Positions 626 through 62,025 of a DNA stretch of 64,000 nt are shown piece after piece. A model generated the notes under the pieces. It saw only the letters and a program-made list of their open reading frames with translations. It did not search any database and was not told the origin of the DNA. The position numbers were made by a program, and so were the translations under genes. Numbering within the stretch: the stretch's first letter is position 1; every line of letters starts with the position of its first letter. The stretch comes from Sphingomonas sp. (GTDB lineage: Bacteria > Pseudomonadota > Alphaproteobacteria > Sphingomonadales > Sphingomonadaceae), in NCBI RefSeq assembly GCF_024508665.1, contig NZ_JANINP010000002.1:36598-100597 (forward strand). Direction: 5' to 3'.

Positions 626-1049
626 CTCCCTCTCCCCTTCGGGGAGAGGGTTGGGGAGAGGGGCAGTGCCTAAAAAGGACAAACGCCAGCTAGAAAACGC
701 GAAAGCGATGCGCAGCGAGCCGACCGGCCCCGAAGCGCGCCTCTGGTACCATCTCCGCGCGAAGCGCCTGATCGGGATCAAGTTCTCGAACCAGGTGTTG
801 ATCGGCCCTTATACCGTCGATTTCGCCGCGCGATCGCGAAAGCTGGTCATCGAACTCGATGGGGATAGCCATGCGGCGCAGGAACGTTATGACGCGCGGC
901 GAACCGCATGGTTGGAAGAGCAAGGATATCGGGTGATCCGTTTCACGAATTCCGACGTGATGACGAATGAGGCGGCGGTGCTGCAGGCAATCATAGATTC
1001 GCTTGCGGCTGCCCCTCTCCCCGGCCCTCTCCCCGGAGGGGAGAGGGAG
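626..1049. mobile_element. DUF559-carrying inverted-repeat element A
   Basis: 39-bp arms at 626-664 and 1011-1049 are inverted repeats (36/39 by hand). Each arm has a perfect CCCTCTCCCC-N3-GGGGAGAGGG hairpin plus an inward GGGGAGAGGGGC tail. They enclose the DUF559 gene. Mobility is inferred. Confidence 0.7.
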
Positions 1050-1061
1050 AAAGATACATGA
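666..1061 (+). CDS. DUF559 / Vsr-like endonuclease domain protein
   Basis: Motifs T.PE.RLW..LR, KF..Q..IG.Y.VDF, KLVIELDG.SH, YD.RR..WLE.QGYRVIRF.N.DV. Probable GTG start at 666 after GGGGAGAGGGG (track start 651). TGA overlaps the hisZ ATG. Confidence 0.88.
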   Translation: MPKKDKRQLENAKAMRSEPTGPEARLWYHLRAKRLIGIKFSNQVLIGPYTVDFAARSRKLVIELDGDSHAAQERYDARRTAWLEEQGYRVIRFTNSDVMTNEAAVLQAIIDSLAAAPLPGPLPGGEREKDT

Positions 1062-2170
1062 CTCACGCGCTGCTCCCTTCCGGCTTTCACGATCGGCTGC
1101 CGCCCGACGCCGATGCGGCGGCGCGGTTGGAGCGGCGTGTGCTCGATGCGGCGCATGCCCATGGCTATGAGCGGGTCGATCCGCCGCTTGCCGAATTCGA
1201 GGATGCATTGGCGCATCGGCTGAAGGCGGCGCGCGCGCAGGACGCCGTGCGTTTCGTCGACCCGATCAGCCAGCGGACTTTGGCGATCCGGCCCGACATC
1301 ACCGCGCAAGTGGGGCGCATCGCGGCGACGCGGATGGGGCACCATCCGCGCCCGCTACGCCTCAGTTACGCCGGATCGGTGCTGCGGCTGCGCGCCTCGG
1401 AACTGTCACCCGAACGCGAGCGGCGCCAAGCCGGATGCGAGCTGATCGGGCTCGATACGATCGCCGCCGCGCAGGAAGTCGTCGCCGTCGCGGTCGAAGC
1501 GCTCGAAGCGGCCGGAGTGACCGGCATCTCGATCGACTTCACCCTGCCCGATTTGCTGAGCACGCTCGCCGCAGGCCCCCTGCCGCTCGACGGCGTGTCG
1601 CTCGATGAGCTCGCCGATCGGCTCGATGCCAAGGATGCCGGTGCGGTCGCGGCGCTGGCGCCGAGCTACCTGCCGATGATCGAGGCAGCCGGACCGTTCG
1701 AAGCAGCGCACGACCGTCTCTGCCGGTTCGATGTCGGTGGCGCGCTGCGCTCGCGGCTCGACGGATTGTGGAAGGTGGCCGAGGCGGTCAAAGGCCGTGT
1801 CGCGCTGACGCTCGATCCGACCGAGCGCCACGGCTTCGAATATCAGACCTGGCTCGGCTTCTCGCTATTCGCCGACGGCGCGCGCGGCGAGATCGGGCGT
1901 GGCGGCAGCTATATGATCGTCCATGAGGATGGCAGTGAGGAAACCGCGATCGGTTTCACGCTGTACATCGACGCGATCGTCGCGGCGGGGCTGACGCACG
2001 ACGAGCGGCGGCGATTGTTCGTGCCGTTGGGCAGCGATCCGGCGTTGGCGGCCAAGTTGCGCAGCGAAGGCTGGGTGACGGTTGCAGCCTTGGAGGCAGG
2101 TGACACGCCCGAGGCGCAGCTCTGTACGCATGTTTTATCAGGTGGTGAGGTTCGCACGATCACCACATAA
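1058..2170 (+). CDS. hisZ: ATP phosphoribosyltransferase regulatory subunit
   Basis: LLPSGFHDRLP, LAIRPDITAQVGRIA, RLSYAGSVLR, ERRQAGCELIG, GRGGSY; conserved position upstream of purA. Confidence 0.93.
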   Translation: MTHALLPSGFHDRLPPDADAAARLERRVLDAAHAHGYERVDPPLAEFEDALAHRLKAARAQDAVRFVDPISQRTLAIRPDITAQVGRIAATRMGHHPRPLRLSYAGSVLRLRASELSPERERRQAGCELIGLDTIAAAQEVVAVAVEALEAAGVTGISIDFTLPDLLSTLAAGPLPLDGVSLDELADRLDAKDAGAVAALAPSYLPMIEAAGPFEAAHDRLCRFDVGGALRSRLDGLWKVAEAVKGRVALTLDPTERHGFEYQTWLGFSLFADGARGEIGRGGSYMIVHEDGSEETAIGFTLYIDAIVAAGLTHDERRRLFVPLGSDPALAAKLRSEGWVTVAALEAGDTPEAQLCTHVLSGGEVRTITT

Positions 2171-2176
2171 CCCAAT

Positions 2177-2263
2177 CGTCACCCCGGACTTGTTCCGGGG
2201 TCCAACGAGCCTCAGGCAGTGCGCCCGCGGATGGTTGGATGCCGGAACAAGTCCGGCATGACG
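2177..2263. repeat. CGTC-tagged REP doublet (inverted pair)
   Basis: CGTCACCCCGGACTTGTTCCGGGGTCCA at 2177-2204 and TGGATGCCGGAACAAGTCCGGCATGACG at 2236-2263. Confidence 0.9.
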
Positions 2264-2285
2264 AACTGAAGCGAAGGAATAGCAA

Positions 2286-60068: not shown

Positions 60069-60506
60069 TCAACCCGGAAGCTTGTATTTTATGGAGGTTT
60101 GCCGCCAGCCTTGGGGGCCATCATACCACTCAGGCGGTAATGCCCGGAACGGCTGGCATTCGGTAATGGTCGCGACAGCTGCGCGCTCCACATCGCCGAG
60201 ATATCGATCATTGACGCCATCCAAGCCGTCATGTCCGACGATTCGAGGCGGCGCAGCAAGCGATCCGTCGCGCTTGAGCTCAAGCTGCACGACGACGCGA
60301 ATGCGTTCGGCACCGTGTCCAGGACTGCTGTGTCGATTGGCGCAAGGCTGAAGCTGATCGCGCAAAGCCCGAGCGATAGCGAGCGCCGTGGACGGCGGCA
60401 TCACAGATACATCCTTGGCAGAGTCGATCAACGCTGCCGCGGGTAGCGGCGAGCCGAAGCAAGCGACAATAGTAATGGCAGCGATCGCGCTAAGGGTTCG
60501 GATCAT
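60069..60506 (-). CDS. stand-alone exported TolA domain III / TonB-C-like paralog (145 aa)
   Basis: Own signal peptide (IVAC fits a lipobox); 58/105 identity, ungapped, to the TolA C-terminus by hand, with both Cys kept. Confidence 0.85.
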   Translation of the reverse strand: MIRTLSAIAAITIVACFGSPLPAAALIDSAKDVSVMPPSTALAIARALRDQLQPCANRHSSPGHGAERIRVVVQLELKRDGSLAAPPRIVGHDGLDGVNDRYLGDVERAAVATITECQPFRALPPEWYDGPQGWRQTSIKYKLPG

Positions 60507-60513
60507 AGCCCTA

Positions 60514-61440
60514 TCAACCCGGAAGCTTGTAGCGGAGCGAGAAGTCGCTCCAGCCATTGGGGACGTCGTACAATTCGGGCGGCAGGCCGCGCAGCGGCTG
60601 GCAGCCCATGAAGGTCGCGATCGCGCGATCGTCGACCTGACGCTGATAGCGGCGATTGTCGTCGTCGACTCCATCATGCCCGACGATCACCGGACGCGAC
60701 GCCAGCGTGCCGTCGCGGTTGATCTTGAGTCGAATGGTCACGCGGATGCGCTCGGCGCCGGGGCCGGGATTGACCTGGCGGTTGGCACAGGGCTGCACCT
60801 GCTGCTTGATCTTTTGGCCGATATCCATCGCCGCTTGTTGGCTCATCGTCGCGGATTTGGGCGCGGTGCCGGTGGCGGGGCTCGGCTTGGTCGAGGCGCC
60901 TTTGAAATAATCAGATCCGAAATTCAGGCCACGCGCCTTGGGCTTGATCGCGTTTGCCGTGCTGCCAGTGCCCTTGCCTGGCTTCACTGCGGGTTTCGCC
61001 GGTGCAGCGACGGCCGGCTTGGGCTGTGCCTTCGGCGCAGGCTTGGGCGCGGGAGGCGCAGGCTTCTTGGGCTCGGGCTTGGCGACCGGTGCGGGCTTGG
61101 GCGGCGGCGCGGCTTCTGGCTGCGGCTTGGGCGGCGTGGGCTCGGCCTTTTCCTCGGCCGGCGCGGGCGGCGCCGAATCCTCGGGGTTGCCGATATCGGG
61201 CGCCTTGCTTTCGGCCGGATCGACGGTCGTGTTGGGCGCGCCGGCCTTCAGCCCGACATCGTCGGCGATCGTCACATCCATCGGCACGACCGGCGGCGGC
61301 GGGGGCGATGGCGGGAGCAGCGACAGGATCGTGAACAGGGCGATGTGCGCGAGCACCGACACGCCGATCGCGATCCACAGCCGGTCGTCGCGCTCCCGCG
61401 GGATCGGGCGCAGGATAGGAGAAACGGCGATGCCGCTCAC
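60514..61440 (-). CDS. tolA: TolA-like energy transducer
   Basis: N-terminal TM with S..AH motif (VSVLAHIALF), Pro/Ala/Lys-rich stalk, C-terminal TolA-III/TonB-C domain; lies between tolR and tolB. Confidence 0.88.
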   Translation of the reverse strand: MSGIAVSPILRPIPRERDDRLWIAIGVSVLAHIALFTILSLLPPSPPPPPVVPMDVTIADDVGLKAGAPNTTVDPAESKAPDIGNPEDSAPPAPAEEKAEPTPPKPQPEAAPPPKPAPVAKPEPKKPAPPAPKPAPKAQPKPAVAAPAKPAVKPGKGTGSTANAIKPKARGLNFGSDYFKGASTKPSPATGTAPKSATMSQQAAMDIGQKIKQQVQPCANRQVNPGPGAERIRVTIRLKINRDGTLASRPVIVGHDGVDDDNRRYQRQVDDRAIATFMGCQPLRGLPPELYDVPNGWSDFSLRYKLPG

Positions 61441-61877
61441 TGGCGCTCCTTGGCGTTCGAGACGAGCGCGACGCGGTTGAGGCCGGCGCGATTGAGCTCG
61501 CCCATCACTTCCATCACGCGGCCGTAATCGAGCGCCTTGTCGGCGCGCAGGAAGACCTGGGGCGGCTTGTCGCCCTGGCGGCGCTCGCGGGCGATGACCG
61601 ACAGGCGGTCGGGCAATTCCTCCATCGTCACGGCGTCGTCACCGATATGGATGGTGCCGTCGCGATCGACCGCGATGTCGACCGGCTTCTGGTCCTGATC
61701 GAGCGCCTTGGCGCGGCTATCGGGAAGGTTCACCGGCACGCCCGCGGTCATCAGCGGCGCGGTGACCATGAAGATGATCAGCAGCACCAGCATGACGTCG
61801 ACCAGCGGCGTGACGTTGATGTCCGCCATCGGCGCGCGGCGCCCTTTGGCGCGCGCGGAGGGGAGATTCATGGCCAC
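61437..61877 (-). CDS. tolR: TolR
   Basis: MADINVTPLVDVMLVLLIIFMVTAP, VFLRADK..DYGRVM.VM. Probable start GTG 61877 or ATG 61871. Confidence 0.95.
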   Translation of the reverse strand: MAMNLPSARAKGRRAPMADINVTPLVDVMLVLLIIFMVTAPLMTAGVPVNLPDSRAKALDQDQKPVDIAVDRDGTIHIGDDAVTMEELPDRLSVIARERRQGDKPPQVFLRADKALDYGRVMEVMGELNRAGLNRVALVSNAKERQ

Positions 61878-61883
61878 GCTAAA

Positions 61884-62025
61884 GCCCCTCCCTTTCAAGG
61901 GAGGGGTTGGGGGTGGGTGAGCGGCGGCGGGGGCTCGATGACCCCGTCGTCGCTGGGGTCAGCCGCCGCACGCTCTCTGCGCTCGCGACCAACCCCTTGA
62001 TCCCCTCCCTTGAAAGGGAGGGGAG
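61884..62025. repeat. gene-less hairpin inverted-repeat element between tolQ and tolR
   Basis: Arms at 61884-61918 (GCCCCTCCC-TTTCAA-GGGAGGGG-TTGGGGGTGGG) and 61988-62025. Confidence 0.85.

Follow-up and report, generated by a model that had tools for sequence, protein, structure and literature searches.

A stretch of 64,000 nucleotides from a Sphingomonas sp. genome (NCBI RefSeq assembly GCF_024508665.1, contig NZ_JANINP010000002.1), hereafter called the window, was analysed for a family of paired hairpin repeats and for the DUF559 nuclease genes that two of them enclose. The window corresponds to C2:36598-100597 of the 4.64-Mb, 65% GC assembly, and element positions are given in window coordinates. 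An original prediction, made from the letters of the window alone, had described seven elements with paired inverted arms, each arm consisting of a hairpin and an inward G-rich tail. All seven were recovered where they had been placed, starting at 626, 5266, 18444, 35919, 45508, 48249 and 61884. They belong to a large, old inverted-repeat population in which the DUF559 gene and its arms form one co-diversifying evolutionary unit with at least eight families, labelled A to H in this analysis. The features of the window are the following.

626..663, plus strand: left arm of the gene-carrying family-C element, with a CCCTCTCCCC-TTC-GGGGAGAGGG hairpin and a TT-GGGGAGAGGGG tail; fits the TMECO pattern (PMC4666352)
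651..1061, plus strand: family-C DUF559 open reading frame, 136 amino acids, or 131 from a GTG at 666; PF04480, E = 9.7e-37; PDB 3HRL, 3e-19
1012..1049, minus strand: right arm of the family-C element, repeating the left arm in inverted orientation; outer GGGAGAGGGAG 8 nt upstream of the ATG of hisZ
5264..5662, minus strand: family-F DUF559 open reading frame, 133 amino acids, ATG at 5662; PF04480, E = 6.1e-35
5267..5318, plus strand: degenerate long arm of the family-F element, with hairpin, inner hairpin and GGGAGGGTGAGGGG tail; fails the strict signature
5663..5726, minus strand: long arm of the family-F element, with a CCCTCTCCC hairpin, an inner GC hairpin with a GAA-type loop and a GGGAGGGTGAGGGGGAG tail; directly adjoins the DUF559 ATG
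18444..18590, unstranded: gene-less family-E element; each arm combines an outer CCTCCCC hairpin with a sequence-variable inner hairpin and a mirror tail GGTGGAGGGG
35919..36016, unstranded: gene-less family-B element between prfA and prmC (minus strand)
45508..45600, unstranded: gene-less family-B element; the orthologous site in genome G009 is without element
48249..48401, unstranded: gene-less family-D element; left hairpin degenerate
61884..62025, unstranded: gene-less family-D element; GGGAGGGGAG immediately ahead of the downstream ATG

Read inward, an arm is composed of a C-rich block, a short loop with a complementary G-rich block, which completes the hairpin, and a second G-rich block, which forms the tail. 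Of the 14 window arms, 13 passed the strict signatures of the families, the exception being the degenerate arm at 5267-5318. The motif CCCTCNCCC occurs 17 times in the window compared with 3.7 expected copies, a number reached by none of 100 shuffles. The original prediction had distinguished two arm subtypes, short and long, and assigned to each a nuclease-carrying member in the window. This division was not upheld, as five families are present (C at 626, F at 5266, E at 18444, B at 35919 and 45508, D at 48249 and 61884) and only C and F have a nuclease gene in the window. The cognate nuclease gene of family E is found outside it at C7:482025-482514 and the nuclease cassette of family D at C6:1089106-1089556, whereas family B has none genome-wide. 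An Rfam search returned no family match anywhere in the window, and the elements thus do not correspond to a described RNA.

Both enclosed open reading frames encode DUF559 proteins, as had been proposed. The PF04480 matches cover 107 and 103 of the 109 profile positions, and the two proteins are 45% identical over 122 residues, close to the earlier estimate of about 47%. Both also match NCBIfam PRK09767, the E. coli YcjD family, with 81-90 bits, which is under its equivalog cut-off, and a structure has been solved for only one relative, as the structural-genomics entry PDB 3HRL. Residues E-x-D-G-x-x-H ... D-x-x-R are at least 90% conserved among 76 proteins from 25 genomes, as is the wider motif R..E..W...Q...DF...E-DG--H...D--R...G...R, and nuclease activity is predicted. 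The genes are under purifying selection, with ratios of nonsynonymous to synonymous substitution rates (dN/dS) of 0.14-0.37 and a value of about 0.14 for the family-C window gene and its ortholog in G009. The family-F window protein is sister to the protein of locus L043, at the same site in G009, with a Shimodaira-Hasegawa-like approximate likelihood ratio test (SH-aLRT) value of 98. A domain search detected no transposase domain in the enclosed open reading frames. A PADLOC search for defence systems yielded, for one of the two window proteins, only weak matches below threshold, one to a homing-endonuclease model and the other to DpdF.

Each window open reading frame begins in or just after one arm, whose G-rich tail gives a GAGG site. 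In the family-C element, the tail of the arm at 626..663 provides this Shine-Dalgarno-like site together with the TTG or GTG start codon. Both open reading frames lack a stop codon of their own; each continues across the distal arm to an ATGA in which it overlaps the start of hisZ (1058-1061) or aroC (5264-5267), suggesting translational coupling of these core genes to the nuclease open reading frame. The arm at 5267..5318, located at the 3' end of the family-F DUF559 gene, terminates 3-4 nt from the aroC start codon.

Co-diversification of DUF559 genes and arm families

The 4.64-Mb genome contains approximately 390 arms with family signatures and approximately 126 paired elements, two chance pairings of unrelated arms (C3:66672-66928 and C3:336348-336763) having been removed from the pair list. 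Pyrimidine-first hairpins number 397 genome-wide, compared with 12 in the purine-first mirror arrangement, and reversed control patterns gave no match in 25 genomes. The spacing from hairpin to hairpin clusters at about 54, 82-98 and 107-112 bp, and a separate group at 370-500 bp represents the DUF559 genes. DUF559 is the sole recurrent cargo among the arm pairs of this genome that enclose more than 200 bp. Gene-less miniature derivatives are far more numerous than gene-carrying units, and those of families G and C retain subterminal bases of the gene-carrying copy (TCTTCTT...GAAGAAGA and GGGGCAGTG, respectively). The system is a repeat population with a dedicated enzyme gene.

The association of DUF559 genes with arms was investigated in this genome, in 24 congeners and in a phylum-wide sample of 121 genomes. 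A tblastn search identified seven DUF559 genes in this genome, and all seven are flanked by arms on both sides. The congeners, most of which carry between one and nine copies, yielded 87 PF04480 matches, and 71 loci were retrieved for arm inspection with a strict hairpin at most 130 nt from the gene as the bracketing criterion. Arms flank 67 of these 71 genes, with strict hairpins on both sides of 54 and on one side of 13. The expectation that DUF559 genes are bracketed by arms beyond chance was therefore borne out. Strong DUF559 matches were obtained in 28 genomes of the phylum-wide sample, and inverted arms of the same three-block design bracket 18 of the 30 loci retrieved from it.

An arm family could be assigned to 74 of the 78 DUF559 genes of the genus, this genome included. 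Placed on the protein tree, the arm family changes 17 times compared with 52.7 times for shuffled labels, a count as low being reached in none of 200 shuffles; like the abundance comparisons, this statistic carries no correction for shared ancestry. The A, B and D clades of the protein tree arose once each (SH-aLRT 95-100), and E and H form one clade at 99. The proposed co-variation of proteins and arms was thus found, and gene and arms diversify together as one unit.

Arm abundance was compared between genomes with and without the cognate gene, applying exact arm-pattern counts in 25 genomes and Mann-Whitney tests. Genomes with the family-A gene contain 11-67 A arms, and those without it mostly 0-1 (median about 0), but 47 are present in this genome (p = 2e-4). 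For family E the numbers are 5-107 with the gene and 0-18 (median about 2) without (p = 2e-4), and the two genomes with the most E arms and no E-type gene carry a related H-type gene. Family B showed a weaker association (p = 0.03), with 9-28 arms in five genomes that lack the cognate gene. Every family, including A, B and H, has gene-carrying members somewhere in the genus. That an arm family strictly requires a nuclease encoded in its own genome was rejected as a universal rule, since A, B and H are orphans here.

Arm structure and triplex motifs

Repeats of the BoxC/PIT/TMECO type have been known since the 1990s, and Hoyne et al. (2000) is reportedly among the sources for these motifs. The TMECO pattern, 5'-CCCTCNCCC N3-6 GGGNGAGGG N3 GGGNGAGGG, equals the older BoxC and PIT elements, and 262 proteobacterial genomes were found to contain 3610 copies of it (Holder et al. 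2015, PMC4666352). In vitro the motif folds into an intrastrand triplex, and it has been linked to genomic instability; transposases and integrases were "never found" near it, and no associated protein or mobility function was described (PMC4666352). Families C, F and G fit the pattern directly, and A, B, D, E and H vary it while keeping the three-block Y-R-R' layout. The arms thus match the BoxC/PIT/TMECO-type motif, a link missing from the original prediction, and triplex potential is predicted for them. Published and present repeats are alike in being intergenic and highly conserved, in copy numbers that vary greatly between related genomes and in their rearrangement-prone loci (PMC4666352). 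The published repeats are single motifs with no partner protein, whereas here they form inverted pairs in at least eight families, some with an inner hairpin, and bracket co-diversifying DUF559 genes. A literature search found no paper that links DUF559 to these repeats, the nearest being one table row on predicted inversions (PMC9881135).

Where the purine block of a family is asymmetric (B, D, E and H), the tail mirrors the purine half of the hairpin and is not a direct copy of it (e.g. GGGGAGG and GGAGGGG). The mirror tail places A or T opposite each A, as a purine-motif triplex demands. Genome-wide, the mirror fits the tail better than the direct copy does (230 versus 119 cases). Within families, arms are 85-94% identical, whereas interior identity, at 42-59%, matches that of shuffled sequence.

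The inner hairpin of family E varies in length and sequence, with 61 distinct versions among 69, yet its pairing is nearly always perfect. In 22 arms of equal length, 92.9% of the cells are paired compared with 71% in shuffles, and 42 double (compensatory) changes were counted compared with 13, a level that none of 500 shuffles reached. Slid controls were 27-66% paired. The inner loops are mainly GAA, GCA or GGA closed by C-G, which makes a very stable mini-hairpin of a classic DNA type. DNA, but not RNA, forms purine triplexes (PMC4666352), and this, together with the lack of an Rfam match, points to the DNA level. The structure of the arms is thus under selection as DNA.

Occupied and empty sites

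Empty orthologous sites were found in related genomes, including the serA-hisZ and fabI-aroC sites named in the original prediction. At serA-hisZ, the C-type cassette is present in about 12-14 species with a divergence about equal to that of its flanks; G021, G006 and G011 have no insertion there, their gaps measuring 24, 18 and ~44 nt, and G020 has a different, gene-less element. The aroC-fabI site is empty in G002, contains a C-type gene-less element in G010 and carries F-type cassettes in G009 and G007. The 35919 site lacks an element in G010 and G003; it is occupied by an A-type element in G002 and a BD-type one in G009, and in G006 by a solo hairpin. The 45508 site is empty in G009, the closest relative sampled. 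Different arm families therefore occur at the same orthologous site across species. Alignments of empty and occupied sites are 70-85% identical and too diverged to fix the exact junctions.

Two of these sites showed further peculiarities. At aroC-fabI in G014 (L096, G014:C1:2815781-2817065), the DUF559 gene has decayed to a partial domain with one in-frame TAG and the arms are degenerate, corresponding to decay of a cassette in place. At the 35919 site in G009 (L103, G009:C1:141140-142035), the left-flank junction is the same to within 2 nt and the interiors are unrelated. Both tails of L103 read GGGGTGGG/CCCACCCC, and those of the window element at 35919-36016 read GGGGAGGG/CCCTCCCC. Such a difference implies either a concerted change in the two arms or an in-place replacement of the element.

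The inverted arms could in principle be sites for programmed inversion of the DUF559 gene, and DUF559 is indeed enriched among the targets predicted for programmed inversion (odds ratio 14.3; PMC9881135). That enrichment is explained by the inverted arms themselves. Relative to their flanks, the serA-hisZ and aroC-fabI orthologs are uniformly oriented; the elements have no linked invertase, and the ~120 gene-less doublets hold nothing to invert. An invertible switch is therefore very improbable.

The cassettes of one family were found in different places. Six D-family cassettes are located in six unrelated contexts and four G-family cassettes in four, sister pairs included. The sites of the G-type cassettes of G010 and G018 are empty in this genome, and the site of the G cassette of this genome is without it in G009. 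The cleanest pair of empty and occupied sites is that of G010 and C6:793.6k in this genome; the insertion follows directly after a TAA stop codon. The flanking genes overlap at the empty site, and at the occupied one a GTG 4 nt past the arm serves as the new start of the downstream gene. The unit of gene and arms has thus moved between loci over evolutionary time.

The flanks of one further G-type cassette, in G009 (L122, G009:C23:102144-107440), match C3:72.4-74.8k and C7:173.7-176.1k of this genome. Since these are different contigs, the cassette stands at a synteny break, in keeping with the published link between triplex motif and rearrangement.

The elements are placed close to gene ends. 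The original prediction had noted their closeness to stop codons in the window, and this now extends to 100 of 252 element sides in the genome that lie at most 45 nt, and mostly at most 20 nt, from a gene end. Another 53 of the 252 sides are followed by a start codon, mostly 0-10 nt beyond a terminal GGGAGG that resembles a ribosome-binding site. One such GGGAGG is found 5 nt ahead of the ATG downstream of the element at 18444..18590. For PrmC, the only in-frame start is a GTG at 35961 (minus strand), inside the element at 35919-36016; as there is no other in-frame start before the conserved N-terminus (VRAALADAAS...), the protein is predicted to start with about 14 residues translated from the arm (VTRPPPTPPASGRG). 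Core genes (prmC, hisZ and aroC) take ribosome-binding sites and even start codons from the elements, which also mislead gene callers.

This placement raises the question whether the arms are domesticated structural elements that serve as donors of ribosome-binding sites, as translational couplers or as DNA-structure sites, with DUF559 as a guardian nuclease that is autoregulated by the arms and does not mobilise them. The occupation of short intergenic gaps, the 53 sides next to a start codon and the dependence of the PrmC, HisZ and AroC starts on an element or their abutment to one are in line with such a host function, as are arms that have long been strongly conserved while interiors drift and cassettes that are vertically inherited under purifying selection. 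However, the same site is empty or differently occupied in other species, so that no site needs its element, and the cassettes change locus. Arm numbers range from 0 to more than 100 among congeners, which is unexpected for a core function, and PIT elements had no promoter or terminator activity in published tests (PMC4666352). A host function of this kind is considered improbable.

The 8 nt on either side of the elements are 59-77% A+T, compared with 35% A+T in the genome. The inverted repeat runs 2-4 nt into the flanks (AAG...CTT, AAAT...ATTT), and this extension may mark the true termini or an A/T-rich target.

A probable partnership of nuclease and repeats

On balance, we consider it probable that the elements constitute a REPIN/RAYT-like system built on an unrelated, Vsr-like hydrolytic nuclease. 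In the mechanism that we infer, each nuclease would recognise the folded, DNA-level structure of the arms of its own family and would nick at or beside it. Host repair synthesis or recombination could then copy or homogenise the DNA bounded by the arms. By this route a single-copy gene would maintain, and occasionally spread, its own cassette as well as gene-less doublets in trans. The G-rich outer ends may serve also as ribosome-binding sites, which would allow insertions to survive in very short operon gaps.

The likeness to REPIN/RAYT systems lies in hairpin repeats that form inverted doublets and in a single-copy enzyme gene flanked by its own repeats (Bertels & Rainey 2011, PMC3116915; PMC3337134; bioRxiv 10.1101/2021.07.10.451892). 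Common to both are also a largely vertical inheritance with long persistence, a repeat family of its own for each enzyme, the lack of target duplication and an intergenic position near gene ends. Here, however, the enzyme is a Vsr-like hydrolytic nuclease of about 130 amino acids and not a Y1/HUH transposase. Because the enzymes are unrelated, their chemistry cannot be the same, and the present system is not a member of REPIN/RAYT but only comparable to it in its working. Further differences are the third, mirror-symmetric block with its predicted triplex potential, cassettes that change locus and the lack of dominant identical 'master' copies.

Other known systems share some of these properties. 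Homing endonucleases of the EDxHD type have a Vsr-fold nuclease with a conserved E/D-x-H-D-type motif, and I-Bth0305I demonstrates that such a nuclease can drive its own spread (PMC3239194), the role of selfish driver that is proposed here for DUF559. EDxHD enzymes reside in introns or inteins, have extra DNA-binding domains and home to one cognate allele by a double-strand break (PMC3239194), whereas the DUF559 gene is free-standing and intergenic, with structured inverted repeats and about 100 gene-less copies at unrelated sites. As in homing, presence/absence polymorphism with the nuclease gene in the insert was observed. One conserved, interrupted target was not found, as cassettes of one clade occur in unrelated contexts whose flanks have only their A/T richness in common. 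The same fold family includes E. coli Vsr and Caulobacter VsrA (PMC12907096). Caulobacter VsrA contains DUF559, causes an SOS response and damages DNA in vivo when its target motif is unmethylated; the two enzymes have been interpreted as mismatch-repair enzymes tied to cytosine methyltransferases, with no repeat association reported (PMC12907096). No methyltransferase linkage was seen for the genes studied here. With miniature inverted-repeat transposable elements the system shares short gene-less copies, terminal inverted repeats and the subterminal sequence kept from a longer gene-carrying copy, but it differs from them in having no DDE or other known transposase, no target-site duplication and conservation of the arms only.

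Several points weigh against the proposed partnership. To our knowledge, PD-(D/E)xK/Vsr nucleases hydrolyse DNA and cannot perform strand transfer by themselves. There are no recent copies among the elements compared: identical or near-identical elements were not found and full-length identity peaks at 0.87-0.94, which together with the randomised interiors gives no sign of recent whole-element copying. The randomised interiors also suggest that the copied unit may be the arm and not the whole element. Direct repeats of 2-5 nt at the flanks of 128 elements are at the level of shuffles, in agreement with the lack of target-site duplications noted in the window. Cassettes persist vertically at fixed loci, at serA-hisZ in 14 species and at two further loci in eight species each. 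Three families that have no cognate nuclease gene in this genome, A (~47-65 arms), B (24-35) and H (17), are nonetheless abundant and well conserved in it, and G018 has 28 B arms and no B-type gene. Finally, the co-variation and abundance statistics ignore kinship, and a passenger gene in one family member would equally produce their signal. The original prediction had envisaged a minimal selfish nuclease system. Its description as a family of autonomous and non-autonomous copies is well supported, the gene-less copies keeping subterminal bases, whereas its claim that the nuclease acts on the arms has to contend with the lack of recent copies and with families A, B and H, which have no cognate gene in this genome.

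If DUF559 is such a passenger, independent doublet repeats are spread by another host or foreign activity, and DUF559 is their easiest cargo with a different real function, e.g. Vsr-type repair linked to cytosine methylation. The thriving orphan families A, B and H agree with this, and simple linkage would yield both the co-variation and the abundance correlation. Caulobacter VsrA is functionally tied to a cytosine methyltransferase and not to repeats (PMC12907096). Another gene can also occupy the interval between arms. This sole non-DUF559 cargo is an open reading frame for a membrane protein of ~185 amino acids in an 826-bp element at C8:14342-15167, the arms of which are matched and of F/G type, with an inverted repeat that reaches TCTGTT/AACAGA. 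On the other hand, DUF559 is the sole recurrent cargo across at least eight arm families, in the genus and in the phylum, and its open reading frame exactly fills the interval from arm to arm. Protein clades that diverge deeply (35-50% identity) have each retained an arm family of their own, which is hard to explain if the arms are indifferent to the protein, and no other candidate mobiliser is associated with the arms, either here or in the published survey (PMC4666352). A passenger role is accordingly regarded as rather unlikely, and the partnership of nuclease and repeats is preferred.

The DUF559 nuclease may thus be the partner of the long-unexplained BoxC or "triplex" repeats. A bolder version of this reading, which we hold only tentatively and think more doubtful than not, is that DUF559 is the missing partner of the BoxC/PIT/TMECO repeats and that both together represent a new class of mobile or self-maintaining element, driven by a nuclease and operating without transposase or target duplication. 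As part of it, a minimal Vsr-like nuclease would recognise folded hairpin-triplex DNA with a specificity that co-evolves by family, and nicking would drive repair-templated copying, homogenisation and occasional transposition. DUF559 is a large family of 'unknown function', and the partnership would join two long-standing loose ends. Should the nuclease act on the arms, the system would be a second, independent REPIN/RAYT-like intragenomic partnership with a different chemistry. It would then become testable how a hydrolytic nuclease propagates DNA, why the loci rearrange and how structured repeats stay identical over long times.

A conventional transposase encoded elsewhere, of the RAYT/IS200 Y1 type or another, could also be considered as the mobilising enzyme, as hairpin ends without target duplication are typical of Y1/HUH systems and one Y1_Tnp homolog is present in the genome. 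This single homolog is not flanked by arms and has unrelated repeats in its surroundings, and a second, unrelated REP-like family in the genome fits it better. Moreover, one enzyme would not account for at least eight arm families that are each paired with their own DUF559 clade, and movement of the elements by such a transposase is hardly credible. RAYT/Y1 was rejected as the mobiliser, the only PF01797 homolog of the genome being without flanking arms. This homolog, at C6:563283-563945, is flanked by the repeats TTTCGGTGCC... and TTAGTAAACTG..., and it may be the partner of the other REP-like family.

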